Below the pieces are notes generated by a model that was not told the DNA's origin, did not search any database, and worked only from the letters and a program-made list of their open reading frames with translations. A DNA stretch of 64,000 nucleotides from a virus (taxonomy: Duplodnaviria > Caudoviricetes). Where the stretch lies: IMG/VR virus record IMGVR_UViG_3300005573_000075, positions 25,781 through 89,780 of that record. One strand, given 5' to 3'. Positions 2 through 11,676 of the stretch are shown here, one piece after another (the first letter of the stretch is position 1; each line of letters begins with the position of its first letter). A program made the translations under genes and the position numbers.

Positions 2-328
2 AGAATACAATGGTTAAATATTGCAAAAAAAGATAAAATAAAACAAGAAGATAGTATTATATGGATATATCCTTCTTATGTAGTAGAAGTGGAAAGTATG
101 GGTATTAATTCAAGAGAAACAGAAGTATATGATACAGGTTTGAATTTTATTAAAAAGGATATAGGATATATATTAAGGCAGCCAAGATTTAAACAAATTA
201 GAGAAGATAAATCACCTTTAAATAAAGAAGATGTAAGAATTTCACAAGTACCAGGGTATAAATATAGTACATTAAAATCTACTTTAATTAAAAATTCTTT
301 TTGGATAAAATATTCAAAAGAAAGATGA
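2..328 (+). CDS. ATP-dependent DNA ligase, C-terminal OB-fold fragment (5' end lies outside the window)
   Basis: Frame is open from nt 2; the ORF track only starts at 89. Translation RIQWLNIAKKD...IWIYPSYVVEVES...YILRQPRFKQIREDKSP matches the ligase OB-domain signature W-x-x-P-x-x-VVEV ... LR-x-PRF-x-x-x-R-x-DK. Confidence 0.8.
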   Translation, partial: RIQWLNIAKKDKIKQEDSIIWIYPSYVVEVESMGINSRETEVYDTGLNFIKKDIGYILRQPRFKQIREDKSPLNKEDVRISQVPGYKYSTLKSTLIKNSFWIKYSKER

Positions 329-455
329 TTTTTAATAGATGAAAATACTGCTATTTTAATAAAGAATAAAGGTGTAAATATTCCTTATAATTATAAATTA
401 AACTCCTTCTAAAACCCACGGTTTTAACCGTGGGATACAGAAGGGTAAAAAATAA

Positions 456-480
456 ATGACAATGAAGGGTATATATAATA
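456..480 (+). promoter_or_regulatory. Phage-type promoter-like motif upstream of tnpB copy 1
   Basis: ATGACA-ATGAAGGGTATA-TATAAT with a 12-nt spacer, ending 4 nt before the ATG; same motif at 3819, 33532, 61682 and 61445 (-). Confidence 0.6.
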
Positions 481-483
481 GAT

Positions 484-8290: not shown

Positions 8291-9954
8291 ATTTAAAATT
8301 TTTGTTTAAAAAAATAAGCGAATACCTAGACAAAAATTTAAATAGAGAAGAAACTGTCGACCCTCACGAGTTAGAAATGGGTATTAAAGAAGAAATGGAA
8401 CATACCGATGATCCAGAAATAGCTAAGGAAATAGCATTAGACCATTTAGAAGAGCATCCTAATTATTATACAAAATTAAAAGAAGTTTTCTCTACTTTAA
8501 ATAAGAAAGCACAGGCGTATCAAATTACTGTGAATGACAAAATTTACGATATAGATATTACTCAAGAAGTTGATACTACTAATGAAAACTCTGTTATAAA
8601 ATATTACATTACGTTTAAAGAGTATCCTGATATGTCTTTTGAAATTGAAAATGCAGAAGAAATTCCTGAGCCGGAATTGAAAGATATAATTGTGGATTAT
8701 ATAGTTAATTTTAAAGATTTAGCAATAAAAAGTTATATAGAAGATCAAATTCCGGTAGACCAATCTGATTTCAATTATAAAGATAAGAGAACAGATACTG
8801 AGGATTATTATGACAAATTAGGCCAATCTTTAGATAAACCAAAACCGGATGGTGAAAGTAGCATGCCTGTAAGAGAAAAAAATAAATATCCTTATCCTTC
8901 CACAGGGTGGTACTCAGACATGAGAGGTTCTTCAGAACCACCTTCCGATTATAGCGATAGCAATTATTCAAAAGCTAAGGAAGGAGATTTACGGCCAGAT
9001 TGGGCTACAGAAAGCAAATTTTCTTGGATAGATAAAGATGAGTTATTTAAGTTTATGAAATTATGCAAACTGTTTAAGATTAACAGAGAATTGACAAGAA
9101 ATGCAACTATATATAAATATCTTCCTTTTTTTGTAAAGAATAGTGCATACTACAGGTTATTGGATGCTTATTTAAATATTTTATTTGAGCCAGTGGATAA
9201 TATTATTAATATTAATAATAGTAATAAAAGTATTATTAATTTAGTTGATGCCTTATATGCTAAGGGATATAATAAATCTACAATTAAAAAAGAAGCATAT
9301 AAAGAATTTGAAAAGGAGATTTATTCTGATAATAATATAAAAAAAGAAATTAAACAATATATAAAGTTTAAATTTTCTCCTAGATTACTAATAGCGTCGG
9401 ATATGCGCCCGTATTTAAAAGTAAAGCATATAAAAAATCCTTTAAAAGAAGGGGTTATATTAAATGTTATAGAGGATACCCCTAGCGAGGCCAGGATATA
9501 TGTATATTGGTTATCAGACGATTCATTAGATTTTGTTAATGAAAATGATTTAATAATTACAGGAGAACCTACTTTTGAAGAGATGAAGAAAGTTAATGAA
9601 AAGGAGCAGCAAAAAGTTAGTATGCTTACAATACAAAAGAATCCTTTTAATTGGTATTTAAGCTCTTTCTTGCAAACTTTTAGGGAATTACCTGTAAAAT
9701 ATGCTGAATTTAGAGAATGGGCGAAGGATATAAAAGATTATACTTTATTCGATAGTTTAGAAACTTTTTTGATAGGTACTAATTTAGTTAATATTACGCC
9801 AGGGTTGACAAAATTAAATGCTAAAAAAGTGGTGTATGTTTCTTCTGATAATGCAACTAAAGTTATTGAATTAGGGGAGGGCGAAGAACCTCCTGAGAAA
9901 ATAACAGATGATGCAGGAAAAGAGTATTCTAAAATCGGAGAAAAGAATGAATGA
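8287..9954 (+). CDS. Mosaic protein with N-terminal DUF5661-like domain
   Basis: HELEMGIKEEMEHTDDPEIAKEIALDHLEEHPNYYTKL signature, followed by unrelated segments. Confidence 0.7.
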   Translation: MNLKFLFKKISEYLDKNLNREETVDPHELEMGIKEEMEHTDDPEIAKEIALDHLEEHPNYYTKLKEVFSTLNKKAQAYQITVNDKIYDIDITQEVDTTNENSVIKYYITFKEYPDMSFEIENAEEIPEPELKDIIVDYIVNFKDLAIKSYIEDQIPVDQSDFNYKDKRTDTEDYYDKLGQSLDKPKPDGESSMPVREKNKYPYPSTGWYSDMRGSSEPPSDYSDSNYSKAKEGDLRPDWATESKFSWIDKDELFKFMKLCKLFKINRELTRNATIYKYLPFFVKNSAYYRLLDAYLNILFEPVDNIININNSNKSIINLVDALYAKGYNKSTIKKEAYKEFEKEIYSDNNIKKEIKQYIKFKFSPRLLIASDMRPYLKVKHIKNPLKEGVILNVIEDTPSEARIYVYWLSDDSLDFVNENDLIITGEPTFEEMKKVNEKEQQKVSMLTIQKNPFNWYLSSFLQTFRELPVKYAEFREWAKDIKDYTLFDSLETFLIGTNLVNITPGLTKLNAKKVVYVSSDNATKVIELGEGEEPPEKITDDAGKEYSKIGEKNE

Positions 9955-11251
9955 TGCAGAAAAAATAATAGCTATTGATTTTGATAATGTTATTGCCAAA
10001 GAGGAAGAAAATGGTAAAATAGGCGAAGAAATTCCTTATGCCTGTGAAACTATTAAAAAATTAACTGAAGAAGGGTGGAAAATATATATTCATTCACACC
10101 GCGCTGCAGATCCTAAAGAAAAAATGAATATGGAAGTTTGGTTAAATTCAAGGGGATTAAATATTCCTATTATGGAGAAACCATTTGCCAGATTTTATAT
10201 TGATGATAGAGCTATAGAGTTTAATGATTGGAATAAAGTATATGATAGATTAAAAAATGATATTCCTGTATCTGTAATAAAAACTCCGATAACTACTATT
10301 TTACCTGGCATTGAAGAGCATATTAAAATGTTGGATACTCCATATTTAAATGAATCAGATTATATAGCAATAATTAATAGATTAAAAAATTTATATGGGA
10401 TAAATGTAACTTATGAGGAATTTGAAAAATATAATTCCCAATATCTTTGGGATTCAAAGATATTGAGATTAGCTAATAAATTATCAGCTAATTATATTCA
10501 AGAAGGGGATAGCGTTTTAATATTGCATGGTAAATATTTAGGGGAATTAGGCACAGTGTATAGCATAAAAGATAGCGAAGCAGAGATTATATGCGATAGC
10601 AATAATAAATTTTTGAGATTTGAAGATTATATGAATAAGCTTAAATATTTCCCATATATATTTAAAAAAGCCTGCAAAGGCCCTTCTAAACTAGTTAATA
10701 AATATTATCCGAATGGATTATCTATAGAAAAGATATCTAAATATTATAAAGATAATTTTCCCATGATATATTCTTATTTTGAAGATCCTAAAATTATCGG
10801 AGTTTTTGATGTGTATGGTTCTTTATATCGTATGGCAATAGAAGATATTAATGATATAAATATGGATAGATTAAGAGGGGTATACAATATAATACCAAAT
10901 AATAGATGCTATCAACCATTGAGAATTAGGAGGGGGCCTAGATTTTTTGGAGAGTTTAAAAATTCATTAGCAGATTTGATATGCGCATTATCTCCATATG
11001 TAATAGATTTTAAGTTAAGTATAGAGGGGGATAAAGGGGTTATATTATATTTACTATTTGATAAACAAGTTAATGAAGAACTATTATCGAATTTAAAAGA
11101 AGTATTGAAAGATTTTAAACATATGGATATAGACGATAATATTAAAGTGGTTCCAGCTATAGATTCGATAGATGTTAATACGGGATTAATTAATAAAAAA
11201 GTGTCACTGGAAGACTATAATTACCCTATTGCGACAATTGAAGGGGAATAA
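9908..11251 (+). CDS. HAD-superfamily phosphatase fused to a KOW/SH3-like domain and an unknown C-terminus
   Basis: IAIDFDNVI (motif I), IHSHR (II), KP (III), YIDDR (IV); QEGDSVLILHGKYLGELGTV is KOW-like. True start may be the ATG near 9950. Confidence 0.75.
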   Translation: MMQEKSILKSEKRMNDAEKIIAIDFDNVIAKEEENGKIGEEIPYACETIKKLTEEGWKIYIHSHRAADPKEKMNMEVWLNSRGLNIPIMEKPFARFYIDDRAIEFNDWNKVYDRLKNDIPVSVIKTPITTILPGIEEHIKMLDTPYLNESDYIAIINRLKNLYGINVTYEEFEKYNSQYLWDSKILRLANKLSANYIQEGDSVLILHGKYLGELGTVYSIKDSEAEIICDSNNKFLRFEDYMNKLKYFPYIFKKACKGPSKLVNKYYPNGLSIEKISKYYKDNFPMIYSYFEDPKIIGVFDVYGSLYRMAIEDINDINMDRLRGVYNIIPNNRCYQPLRIRRGPRFFGEFKNSLADLICALSPYVIDFKLSIEGDKGVILYLLFDKQVNEELLSNLKEVLKDFKHMDIDDNIKVVPAIDSIDVNTGLINKKVSLEDYNYPIATIEGE

Positions 11252-11676
11252 TGGAATTAGAGGAATATAAAGAAAAACGAGATTGGACCAAAACTCCTGA
11301 ACCAAAGGGAGATGGATCTAAAGTCTCTAAATTAGTTATCCAGCAACATGAAGCCAAAAGGGCGGGGAACCATTACGATTGGAGAATCCCGTATAAAGGG
11401 GTATTAAAGTCTTTTGTAACTAAAAAATTACCTAAAAAGGGAGAAAAGATATTAGCAATTCCTACAGAGGATCATCCATTAGCTTATGCCTCCTTCGAGG
11501 GGGAAATACCTGAGGGTACATATGGAGCGGGGAAAGTGACTAAAAAAGGAGAGTATTCTTTTAAACTTAATGAATTCTCCTCCTCCAAAATTTCATTTGA
11601 AATTTTGGAGGAGGATATGGAAGGAAAATATACTTTAATAAAATTTAAAAATGGATTTTTAATGCACAGGGGTTAA
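11251..11676 (+). CDS. ligD: Stand-alone LigD 3'-phosphoesterase (PE) domain
   Basis: LEEYKEKRDWTKTPEP, VIQQHEA, HYDWR, GVLKS, TEDHP and FEGEIPEGTYGAGKV match the LigD PE signature. The symbol refers to the PE domain only. Confidence 0.92.
   Translation: MELEEYKEKRDWTKTPEPKGDGSKVSKLVIQQHEAKRAGNHYDWRIPYKGVLKSFVTKKLPKKGEKILAIPTEDHPLAYASFEGEIPEGTYGAGKVTKKGEYSFKLNEFSSSKISFEILEEDMEGKYTLIKFKNGFLMHRG

Follow-up and report, generated by a model that had tools for sequence, protein, structure and literature searches.

Results

The window analysed here is a stretch of 64,000 nucleotides (64 kb) from the 89,780-bp (89.8-kb) record of an uncultured phage, which CheckV rates as complete and whose genes indicate a contractile-tailed phage with a genome of ~90 kb. 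The genes and the insertion element described below, from the ligase to the tail sheath, lie on the plus strand. The window opens within an ATP-dependent DNA ligase gene, whose 3' end occupies positions 1..328 (TGA stop at 326-328) and whose start lies 754 nt upstream of the window. The full enzyme has 360 amino acids (genome 25026-26108; L002:13026-14108), of which the last 108 are encoded in the window. A preliminary description had read positions 2-328 as the C-terminus of such a ligase, and the Pfam profiles bear this out (DNA_ligase_A_M, 1.1e-12; DNA_ligase_A_C, 1.6e-12). Motifs I-VI are readable, including KVDG, EGFVI, IKIKP and RQPRF..REDK, and full-length homologues have E values of 1e-81 to 1e-57 among the 12 matches listed. 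The best NCBIfam match, to the LigD ligase domain (TIGR02779), reaches 56.3 bits where the cut-off is 228, and the best PDB matches are archaeal Lig1-type enzymes. Judged by these matches, the protein is a diverged minimal ATP-dependent ligase that is LigD-like by association and not a clear LigD LIG.

The ligase gene is separated from the polymerase (POL) gene by a tnpB-only IS200/IS605-type element at 395..1586 (Pfam Cas12f1-like_TNB, 1.6e-20; tnpB at 484-1581), which is inserted after TTAT at 391-394 and whose right end is at 1585 or 1586, a 1-nt uncertainty. A second copy, 95% identical and likewise inserted after TTAT, is present at genome 5366-6606, and a third tnpB lies at window 61711-62811.

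The POL protein (854 aa; 1602..4166) carries a LigD-type archaeo-eukaryotic primase (AEP) domain at about residues 25-260 (nt 1674-2381), and only these first ~260 residues are POL. After the domain come a helical region, which contains five repeats of 32 aa (96-nt period, nt 3079-3686), and a tail of 124 aa; the AEP-plus-repeat body is flanked by a direct repeat of 61 nt (1612-1672 and 3742-3802), each copy of which encodes EEEPVEKKSMWV. The LigD POL assignment previously made for this reading frame is upheld by Pfam LigD_Prim-Pol (34.7 bits, cut-off 27.4, residues 103-237) and by a profile search that placed LigD PolDom 2iru at 1.9e-12, with primases behind at about 1e-4. A confident AlphaFold model of residues 1-270 (pLDDT 89.3) had as top fold matches LigD PolDom, the Methanocella NHEJ polymerase and Prim-PolC (TM 0.64-0.68, E 2e-11 to 1e-8). 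The family alignment shows no variation at residues D125, D127 and D216. In motif II (SGxxGxH) the His is replaced by Tyr in the source phage and its closest relative, and the polymerase may therefore be altered or weakened.

Between POL and the tail sheath gene no intergenic gap exceeds 50 nt. A conserved 254-aa protein (4167..4931), whose homologues adjoin head genes in the related contigs L009, L010 and L020, is probably a head-completion or adaptor protein; the adaptor, head-completion and connector families that an atlas search returned are no more than leads. Four cassette-associated ORFs follow (4934..9954), encoding 139, 478, 479 and 555 aa, with a DUF6496/phrog_2423 hint in the 478-aa ORF, a K/E-rich 479-aa product and DUF5661 in the 555-aa product. 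Homologues of the 139-, 478- and 555-aa proteins are kept in the same order in L009, and large DUF5661 proteins recur near these genes in L009, L015 and L018.

The next gene encodes an HAD phosphatase, a KOW-like segment and an inactive AEP domain (9947..11251), and its stop codon overlaps the start of the phosphoesterase (PE) gene by 1 nt. The earlier report of an intact HAD domain just upstream of PE was correct, but the gene more likely starts at 9947 than at 9908, as the 434-aa form corresponds to protein-database entry P0077 (overlap with the upstream ORF, 8 nt from 9947 and 47 nt from 9908), and the domain is fused to an inactive POL. In the 447-aa frame the HAD domain spans residues ~15-120, the KOW-like segment 196-237 and the pseudo-POL AEP about 250-447. 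The HAD domain is capless and intact, with DxD, S, K and DD motifs invariant across four orthologues, and its profile matches BT0820 (2obb) at 9e-17; the KOW-like segment has weak L24 matches only. An AEP HMM whose training set excluded the pseudo-POL proteins themselves recognised this domain (6e-5) together with its L009 orthologue (4e-23) and P0164 (2e-48); it matched no other ORF in the genome. The DxD site is replaced by LRIRR in the source phage, VKIAS in L009 and IKVES in P0164; the corresponding column reads IGVGR in L007, by MAFFT alignment only. The metal site is lost here and in two of the three relatives of the domain that were examined. On this sequence evidence, the gene is a fusion of an HAD phosphatase with an inactive, eroded POL paralogue.

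The stand-alone LigD-type 3'-phosphoesterase reported earlier at 11251..11676 (141 aa) is clear from its matches to Pfam LigD_N (76 bits, cut-off 31.1), TIGR02777 (112.9 bits) and PDB 3p43 (7e-28). Alignment to 3p43, 3p4h and 2lj6 shows conservation of H..H.D.R, EDH...Y and the N-terminal KRD..TPEP, and the residues that we take to be catalytic are all present. Downstream lie morphogenetic genes (11683..16660) for proteins of 463, 245, 346 and 197 aa and then the tail sheath (15449-16660; PHROG tail sheath matches). The cassette is thus inside the head-to-tail morphogenetic string, and the description of the enzymes as interleaved with virion genes holds.

Linkage in related phages had been set beforehand as a point on which the proposal could fail; ligase, POL, PE and HAD were adjacent or fused in every related contig opened. 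Among the best 150 POL relatives in 1.84 billion proteins, the same polypeptide carries this type of ligase in 25, PE in 62 and an HAD domain in 3, and Pfam finds LigD_N in 26 and ligase domains in 14 of the top 48. Some relatives add SLT (lytic transglycosylase), 2H phosphoesterase or CCA-adding/HD domains, and Acb1 also occurs, in a pooled tally only. In the closest relative, P0078, LIG and POL are fused, and its contig is syntenic. Other arrangements are LIG-mCpol-POL-PE (1992 aa), LIG-POL-HAD (2623 aa), 2H-LIG-POL-SLT-CCA/HD (2659 aa), POL-PE-LIG (873 aa), LIG-POL-PE (1199 aa) and a LIG gene adjoining a POL-PE fusion; in unrelated IMG/VR contigs PE adjoins HAD or is fused to a ligase. The multi-domain proteins of 1,200-2,700 aa adjoin protease genes, and one such relative carries SLT. 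A protease gene beside the cassette is absent from the source phage genome; a 204-aa neighbour was considered as the trypsin-like protease of the relatives and rejected as a different protein.

The slot is also conserved. In L010, L017 and L020 the enzymes directly precede a run of genes homologous to those for the 346-aa and 197-aa proteins, the sheath and the tube; in L009 they follow the same head genes, the tail genes lying beyond the stretch fetched. The cassette thus has the same place in these four related contigs, upstream of the sheath or downstream of the head genes. In L007 and L008 a homologue of the 463-aa protein comes after PE. The cassette belongs to a lineage of myoviruses with a capsid protein similar to the one in Bacillus phage G.

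Discussion

The four enzymes are confirmed as real and correctly placed, with scores far beyond chance, and from their motifs all four look catalytically intact. The claim that all three LigD modules are present stands for POL and PE, which fall in LigD families by profile (POL also by fold) with their catalytic residues present, but not for the ligase, which is below the LigD cut-off. Bacterial LigD, in which LIG, POL and PE act with Ku in NHEJ, comprises the same three enzyme types; phage POL and PE share its Pfam families and catalytic residues, the POL fold is nearest LigD PolDom, and relatives even show the orders LIG-POL, POL-PE-LIG and LIG-POL-PE. Unlike LigD, the enzymes described here are phage-encoded and without Ku, and they are divided among genes 10 kb apart, between which lie virion-module genes and an IS element. 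The ligase has diverged below every curated LigD cut-off, a fusion of an HAD phosphatase and a dead POL domain is added, and POL has a 590-aa helical-repeat tail and a Tyr for the motif-II His. The reported lack of Ku in the window is upheld and extends to the complete 89,780-bp record, in which Ku and Mu Gam had no match, although a very diverged Ku, or recourse to host Ku, may exist. NHEJ-type end joining is not supported: Ku is absent, and the nearest Ku-independent precedent, mycobacterial LigC/Prim-PolC, mends short gaps and not double-strand breaks. As a conjecture, the enzymes might circularise the incoming genome or rescue it after CRISPR or restriction cuts, the roles proposed earlier.

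In mycobacteria, LIG and POL act as a pair on short gaps, into which ribonucleotides are inserted before sealing (PMC5663958). It likewise consists of a separate ligase and an NHEJ-clade AEP (PMC5663958, PMC7442782), and Prim-PolC structures 6sa0 and 5op0 are among the top fold matches of phage POL (TM 0.67). It differs in being cellular, expressed in stationary phase and working with host BER enzymes, with no PE or HAD partner. The split NHEJ system of the archaeon Methanocella paludicola (5dmu, 5dmp) also has LIG, POL and PE as separate proteins; the best sequence matches of phage PE are archaeal stand-alone PEs (3p43, 3p4h, 5dmp), and 5dmu was third in the POL fold search. That system, however, includes Ku and is chromosomal. 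T4 Pnkp with its ligase may share the logic by which an HAD-type 3'-phosphatase plus a ligase restores broken nucleic acid in infection, whereas in our phage no 5'-kinase was detected among the ORFs scanned, the ligase is of DNA type and the HAD belongs to a BT0820-like capless group.

Our results suggest, with fair probability, that the cassette is a kit of the phage's own which works without Ku and heals, fills and seals DNA breaks; it would descend from the LigD family and have been kept as a fixed unit in the morphogenetic string of a myovirus lineage. We infer the substrates and order of steps as follows. PE and probably the HAD phosphatase would strip 3'-phosphates to leave 3'-OH ends, PE additionally removing surplus 3'-ribonucleotides; the AEP polymerase would then fill short gaps or extend the 3' end, probably with ribonucleotides, and the minimal ligase would close the nick. 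The dead AEP on the HAD protein would most likely act as an adaptor, either recruiting the phosphatase to a break by binding the DNA end or gap, or pairing with the active POL. As two 3'-phosphatases, PE and HAD look redundant, and one of them may therefore have another substrate, such as a nucleotide or RNA.

It is possible, though rather unlikely, that the phage LigD functions join double-strand ends with a host Ku, for example to circularise the genome. Mycobacteriophages Omega and Corndog bring Ku and use host LigD, the mirror image of such borrowing. The POL fold also matches PolDom bound to an annealed break (4mky), and the record has no terminal repeats; a phage that exploits NHEJ to circularise its genome is a published precedent (Pitcher et al. 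2006, as cited in PMC4351075). A search for the host found nothing. Conservation of the cassette across diverged phages from varied samples would require a Ku-bearing host for each, and a system that adds a dead AEP adaptor and a second phosphatase looks self-sufficient. We also think it unlikely that the enzymes serve replication, with the AEP as primase, PE trimming RNA primers, the ligase joining Okazaki fragments and the polymerase borrowed from the host. Ligases are common phage replication genes, AEPs often serve as phage primases (PMC5862659), and PolA, PolB and a DnaB-type helicase were not found in the whole 89.8-kb genome, so that the AEP is the only polymerase-like enzyme seen; as the genome has no further recognisable polymerase, primase or replicative helicase, the enzymes may have a part in replication. 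However, the AEP lacks a helicase, PriCT or zinc-binding partner domain, its tail being a helical repeat region, and in sequence and fold it is nearest the repair clade (LigD PolDom, Prim-PolC) and not Prim-Pol replicases. It lies in the late head-tail string, far from the UvsW-like and RuvB-like genes, and the fusions of relatives to SLT, 2H and CCA-adding domains would make no sense for a replisome part.

Those same fusions raise the question of whether RNA is the substrate, the enzymes mending host or phage RNAs (tRNAs) after cleavage by anticodon nucleases or by further RNases of defence, in the manner of T4 Pnkp and Rnl1. The additional domains of relatives include 2H phosphoesterase, cREC and CCA-adding/poly(A) polymerase plus HD, the ligase weakly matches Pfam RNA_ligase (5.9e-5), and the HAD profile has a weak match (E 0.011) to Pnkp1 phosphatase, part of an RNA repair complex. 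Yet the RNA-type domains are extras in 2-3 of 48 relatives, the ligase shares its OB domain and motif VI with DNA ligases, which also make up all of its best matches, and RNase-cut RNA needs a polynucleotide 5'-kinase, of which there was none among the ORFs scanned. To our knowledge, every POL and PE characterised so far acts on DNA ends, and we regard RNA repair as quite improbable.

The literature that we searched holds no description of such a virus-owned LigD-like mending kit. The proteins of 1,200-2,700 aa in relatives fit the design proposed by Iyer et al. (2017, PMC5512222) for polyvalent proteins delivered with invading DNA, whereas in the source phage the domains are separate genes and virion packaging would be an extrapolation from them. 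In that paper, Primpol domains of polyvalent proteins are reported only from conjugative elements, the term LigD has 0 occurrences, and 12 of 21 passages were seen to concern neither a DNA ligase nor LigD PE. As the same enzymes occur as giant fusion proteins in related phages, we favour a mending kit that belongs to the virus. Because its genes lie among late virion genes, and because the giant fusions of relatives adjoin proteases, one of them with SLT, the enzymes would work on the genome of the phage itself as it enters the cell or shortly afterwards, and may travel in the capsid.

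Phage genome and setting

The 89,780-bp record has a CheckV completeness of 100% and a GC content of about 30%, and no terminal repeats were found in it. The phage is contractile-tailed: it has genes for a tail sheath (15449-16660) and a baseplate wedge protein (26791-28290), and that for the major capsid protein (Phage_capsid_4) lies 3.3 kb upstream of the window. Among GenBank proteins, this capsid protein comes closest to the Bacillus phage G major head protein (32% identity). Most genes have no family match, and Pfam and PHROG scans of ~70 further ORFs were mostly empty. From the POL gene to the sheath gene, every intergenic gap is 50 nt or less, and scans for promoters and terminators returned signals at chance level only.

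The ORFs at 28526-30307 (593 aa, with a tail-fibre match) and 30317-32431 (704 aa) share one frame, with only a TGA and three codons between them, and read-through would yield a 1,300-aa product. A single 401-aa protein encoded at 36917-38122 contains thymidylate kinase and inorganic pyrophosphatase-like domains. Upstream of the capsid gene, a 747-aa ORF (genome 16571-18814, or 4571-6814 of the genome stretch L002) has weak Hint/intein matches, and its homologues in the related contig L018 bear inteins; the ORF is perhaps an intein-containing gene for virion structure or packaging. The leftward early region, in the genome stretch L001, encodes on the minus strand a GroEL/TCP-1-like protein (L001:3618-4994), with a weak match to part of that family, and a papain-family peptidase (L001:1930-2676).

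Phosphoesterase and polymerase

The preliminary description had recognized a stand-alone LigD phosphoesterase (PE) gene and LigD polymerase motifs, and both assignments are upheld. The product of ORF 11251-11676 matches PF13298 over the full profile (positions 1-107 of 107) with 76.0 bits (cut-off 31.1), and PDB entry 3p43 at 7e-28. Its TIGR02777 score of 112.9 bits is below the equivalog cut-off of 144, which marks it as a diverged member. When aligned to 2lj6, 3p43 and 3p4h, it has QQHEAKRAGNHYDWRI and EDHPLAY opposite QKHDASRLHYDFRL and EDHPLDY, so that each residue of the catalytic motifs H..H.D.R and EDH...Y in the solved PE domains has its counterpart in the phage protein. From Shuman-laboratory work, we take the catalytic residues to be His42, His48, Asp50, Arg52, His84 and Tyr88 (P. 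aeruginosa numbering). As judged from its sequence, the ORF is unambiguously a LigD PE.

The 854-aa POL protein (ORF 1602-4166) scores 34.7 bits against PF21686 (LigD_Prim-Pol; cut-off 27.4), over profile positions 80-217 of 254 only, and 28.6 bits against TIGR02778, below the cut-off of 214.7. Because this lone LigD_Prim-Pol score was modest, further tests were made. A word-index search returned no relatives, and the family came from an exhaustive HMMER search of 1.84 billion proteins with POL residues 1-300, which yielded 320 relatives, including 34 with E below 1e-30. In IMG/VR, pattern scans for relatives of POL or of the ligase found none. A profile of 32 short family members matched the M. 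tuberculosis LigD PolDom at 1.9e-12, and also the Methanocella NHEJ polymerase and the P. aeruginosa LigD POL, while primases were matched only at ~1e-4. For the AlphaFold model of the AEP domain on the family alignment (pLDDT 89.3), the top Foldseek matches were 3pky, 2r9l, 5dmu, 2irx, 6sa0 and 2fao (TM 0.64-0.68); the best fold matches are all LigD PolDom, NHEJ polymerase or Prim-PolC, whereas CAPP, PrimPol and PriS gave TM values of 0.50 or less. The motifs WIDLDP and RID are present, and the metal-binding aspartates D125, D127 and D216 are invariant in the 32 family members. Motif II (SGxxGxH) reads TGGRGMY; this change of His to Tyr is common to POL and its closest relative, the LIG-POL fusion P0078, and most of the family keeps the His.

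The AEP domain is followed by ~590 residues of helical repeats, which include five 32-aa units. The POL gene also has a 61-nt in-frame direct repeat (1612-1672 and 3742-3802), the copies being 2130 nt apart, 92% identical overall and fully identical over the last ~40 nt. The encoded EEEPVEKKSMWV immediately precedes the AEP domain and recurs 710 codons later, before the last 124 aa, and each copy of the repeat has a purine-rich stretch followed by an ATG. These repeats may mark sites of internal initiation or of processing, or be the scar of a recombination event. Use of EEEPVEKKSMWV as a general cleavage tag is not supported: the proteome has two occurrences, both in POL.

Ligase and adjacent insertion element

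Positions 2-328 of the window encode the C-terminal end of an ATP-dependent ligase of 360 aa, whose gene begins upstream (genome 25026-26108). Matches to PF01068 (1.1e-12) and PF04679 (1.6e-12) in Pfam, and the presence of all nucleotidyltransferase and OB motifs I-VI, including KVDG, EGFVI, IKIKP and RQPRFKQIREDK, assign this protein to the ATP-dependent DNA ligase superfamily. Its earlier designation as the ligase module of LigD stands only in part: the motifs are intact, but the best NCBIfam match, TIGR02779 (LigD ligase domain), reaches 56.3 bits, well short of the curated cut-off of 227.75, with dnl1 second at 49.3 bits. In the PDB search, the protein was closest to archaeal Lig1-type ligases, and LigD LIG was absent among the matches at E <= 0.01.

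Between the ligase and POL genes, following a TTAT, is an IS200/IS605-type element with tnpB only. It begins at 395 and ends at 1585 or 1586, since comparison of two copies leaves that base ambiguous. The second copy (genome 5366-6606, in L001) is 95% identical and also follows TTAT, and a third is present at 61711-62811. This 90-kb phage genome hence holds three copies of the element, the TTAT target being shown for two, and no tnpA was seen with any of them. A search of 185,579 genomes with tnpB for a host gave zero matches.

The TGA of the ligase gene is 66 nt upstream of the insertion site, and the ligase was therefore not truncated by the IS itself. If the element ends at 1586, its removal gives a continuous LIG-POL frame with one TGA; an end at 1585 does not. 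Recoding of this TGA to join LIG to POL was ruled out: 36 of the 104 ORFs end in TGA, usually with a TAA or TAG soon after. As TGA is an ordinary stop in this genome, LIG and POL are separate genes today. That the two were once fused is still plausible, since in the closest relative LIG and POL form a single protein, with a linker of 12 aa as against ~75 aa in this phage.

HAD/pseudo-polymerase protein

An intact HAD phosphatase gene had been described directly upstream of the PE gene. The HAD domain is indeed intact, but it is confined to the first ~120 residues of the protein encoded at 9947-11251; a weakly KOW-like segment and a decayed AEP domain make up the rest. Four orthologues share HAD motifs I-IV (DFDNV, S, K and DD) without change, and the HAD profile matches 2obb (BT0820) at 9e-17, which indicates an intact, capless domain of the BT0820 type. 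Pfam gave zero matches for this domain, and NF046079 matched the gene with 43.6 bits (cut-off 165). The sole hint of a polynucleotide 3'-phosphatase of the T4 Pnkp type is a weak profile match to the Pnkp1 phosphatase (4xrp, E 0.011), and a substrate of this kind is proposed from the gene context.

The AlphaFold model of the HAD/pseudo-POL protein, made from a 3-row alignment, was unusable (pLDDT 43), and homology of the second domain to AEPs was established by HMMs instead. An AEP HMM trained without the HAD/pseudo-POL proteins matched the orthologue in L009, the syntenic contig of the closest relative, at 4e-23 and the HAD-AEP fusion P0164 at 2e-48; the protein of this phage was matched at 6e-5 and the relative in contig L007 at 2e-5, and no further ORF of the phage genome was matched. 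The DxD metal site is replaced by LRIRR in this phage, VKIAS in the L009 orthologue and IKVES in P0164, and its loss in the L007 relative is read from a MAFFT alignment only. The recurrence of a pseudo-AEP lacking DxD in relatives argues that the fusion is a conserved component rather than an isolated case of decay.

Linkage and genomic position in relatives

Every ORF of the phage genome was searched against the best 150 POL relatives. A full-length ligase homologue was found in 25 of these (E 1e-81 to 1e-57 for the 12 matches listed) and PE, in the same polypeptide, in 62; the linkage across related phages on which the original proposal depended is therefore clear. The HAD domain is present in three of the 150 (P0164, P0112 and P0108), and three other matches to the HAD/pseudo-POL ORF cover the pseudo-AEP part only. 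Among the best 48 relatives, Pfam identified LigD_Prim-Pol in 45, LigD_N in 26 and ligase domains in 14, with sporadic extras (2H phosphoesterase, GGDEF/mCpol, CCA-adding/poly(A) polymerase with HD, Acb1, cREC, NT5C and SLT).

Genomic contexts were compared for ten of the 320 POL-family members. The closest relative (L009) has a single 699-aa LIG-POL protein and keeps the whole gene order of the window; it has the head-side order in common with this phage, the compared stretch ending before the tail genes. A LIG-mCpol/GGDEF-POL-PE protein of 1992 aa is encoded by L010 and L011 (110 kb), a LIG-POL-PE protein of 1199 aa by L020, and LIG followed by a POL-PE fusion by L017. Three of these contigs, L010, L017 and L020, have the kit (ligase, POL, PE and HAD/pseudo-POL protein in this phage) 3' of head/adaptor genes and directly 5' of the genes homologous to those for the 346-aa, 197-aa, sheath and tube proteins. 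L016 has LIG and POL in 2290 aa, with Baseplate_J two genes away; L007 and L008 have the HAD/pseudo-POL gene, then PE, then the homologue of the 463-aa gene that follows PE in this phage. Unrelated IMG/VR contigs contain PE-ligase fusions and PE adjoining HAD. An mCpol/GGDEF-type palm domain is a recurrent partner of the kit: it is inside the fusion protein of L010 (L010:10001-15979) and, in L018 (L018:6203-6892), one gene upstream of a POL-PE-LIG protein that also adjoins a DUF5661 protein.

Giant fusions are found beside protease genes in two contigs. In L013, LIG, POL and HAD are in a 2623-aa protein directly 3' of a trypsin-like protease gene, and in L015 such a gene is one short ORF (108 aa) before the 2659-aa 2H-LIG-POL-SLT-CCA/HD protein P0110 (L015:8001-15980). 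The motif P-x-SSL-E/D-x-E-A occurs in P0110 at residues 674-681, 1197-1205, 1448-1456 and 2575-2583, immediately flanking the AEP domain on both sides and marking two other domain borders; it looks like a candidate protease site, or a processing or docking signal. The 204-aa upstream neighbour in this phage was ruled out as a counterpart of the trypsin-like protease, with zero similarity.

Discussion

LigD-type repair is known as a cellular, Ku-dependent pathway of stationary phase, and earlier work has described LigD, the split NHEJ enzymes of archaea and LigC/Prim-PolC. To our knowledge, phages are linked to this repair only through some mycobacteriophages, which supply Ku and rely on the LigD of the host. 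Ku-carrying mycobacteriophages are on record (Pitcher et al. 2006, as cited in PMC4351075). While these phages combine their own Ku with host LigD, the lineage studied here does the reverse, carrying the enzymatic side without Ku. Within a partial coverage of the literature, we found no published description of a phage-encoded LIG, POL and PE set fixed in a virion module without Ku, and tblastn searches of 50,697 GenBank phage records with PE and POL (at 1e-5) and ligase (at 1e-3) gave zero matches.

We consider it probable that the kit performs Ku-independent cleaning of 3' ends, gap filling and sealing of phage DNA. PE, and probably the HAD domain too, would generate a 3'-OH, POL would then fill or extend and the ligase would seal, while the pseudo-POL domain may target or scaffold the other enzymes. 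Mycobacterial LigC/Prim-PolC, a ligase with an NHEJ-clade AEP, fills short gaps with ribonucleotides before ligation (PMC5663958) and is a published precedent for a ligase acting with such a polymerase.

Ku, which had not been visible in the window, is absent from the whole 89,780-bp record, with zero matches to either PF02735 or TIGR02772. The record also gave zero matches to Mu Gam (PF07352), a search that says little as control genomes gave none either. True NHEJ, in which the phage LigD functions would work with host Ku, appears unlikely. No other polymerase or primase was found in the phage genome, nor were PolA, PolB or a DnaB-type helicase, which would fit a role of the kit in replication or Okazaki processing; however, the AEP clade, the missing primase partner domains, the genomic position and the fusion partners are all contrary, and we regard this role as improbable. 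The 2H, CCA and HD domains added in a few relatives might instead suggest RNA repair, but this is unlikely given that the ligase is of the DNA type and that a 5'-kinase was not found.

Our preferred reading, the mending of phage DNA, can be extended to its timing. The conserved late-module position, the giant fusions beside protease genes, the SLT domain in one fusion and the repeated border motifs suggest that the kit acts on the phage genome at about the time of entry, and raise the possibility, which we hold tentatively, that the enzymes are carried in the capsid. A joint reading, equally speculative, is that the ligase, POL, PE and HAD/pseudo-POL protein are packaged in the capsid and leave it together with the DNA, the polyprotein of relatives being cut at the repeated border motifs; they would then mend, without Ku, the nicks, gaps and cuts made by host nucleases, or join the genome ends, before phage gene expression. 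The giant fusions of relatives match the logic of polyvalent proteins as set out by Iyer et al. 2017 (PMC5512222). The many-domain feature is present in relatives P0083, P0110, P0112, P0113 and P0137, whereas this phage has separate genes. In that paper, the term LigD is absent and the Primpol domains are reported from conjugative elements only.

In summary, this phage lineage keeps a ligase, a repair polymerase, a 3'-end cleaner, an extra phosphatase and a putative dead-polymerase adaptor at a fixed position among virion genes. Should the kit mend phage DNA that is incoming or packaged, it would give phages a general route to survive nicking and cutting defences and would be a natural, compact, Ku-free DNA-mending system. 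If virion delivery is true, it would represent a counter-defence borne by the virion that acts by repair instead of inhibition. The fusion of HAD to a pseudo-polymerase may represent a break-targeting adaptor of a new kind, and it is in this candidate adaptor and in possible virion delivery that the main interest lies.
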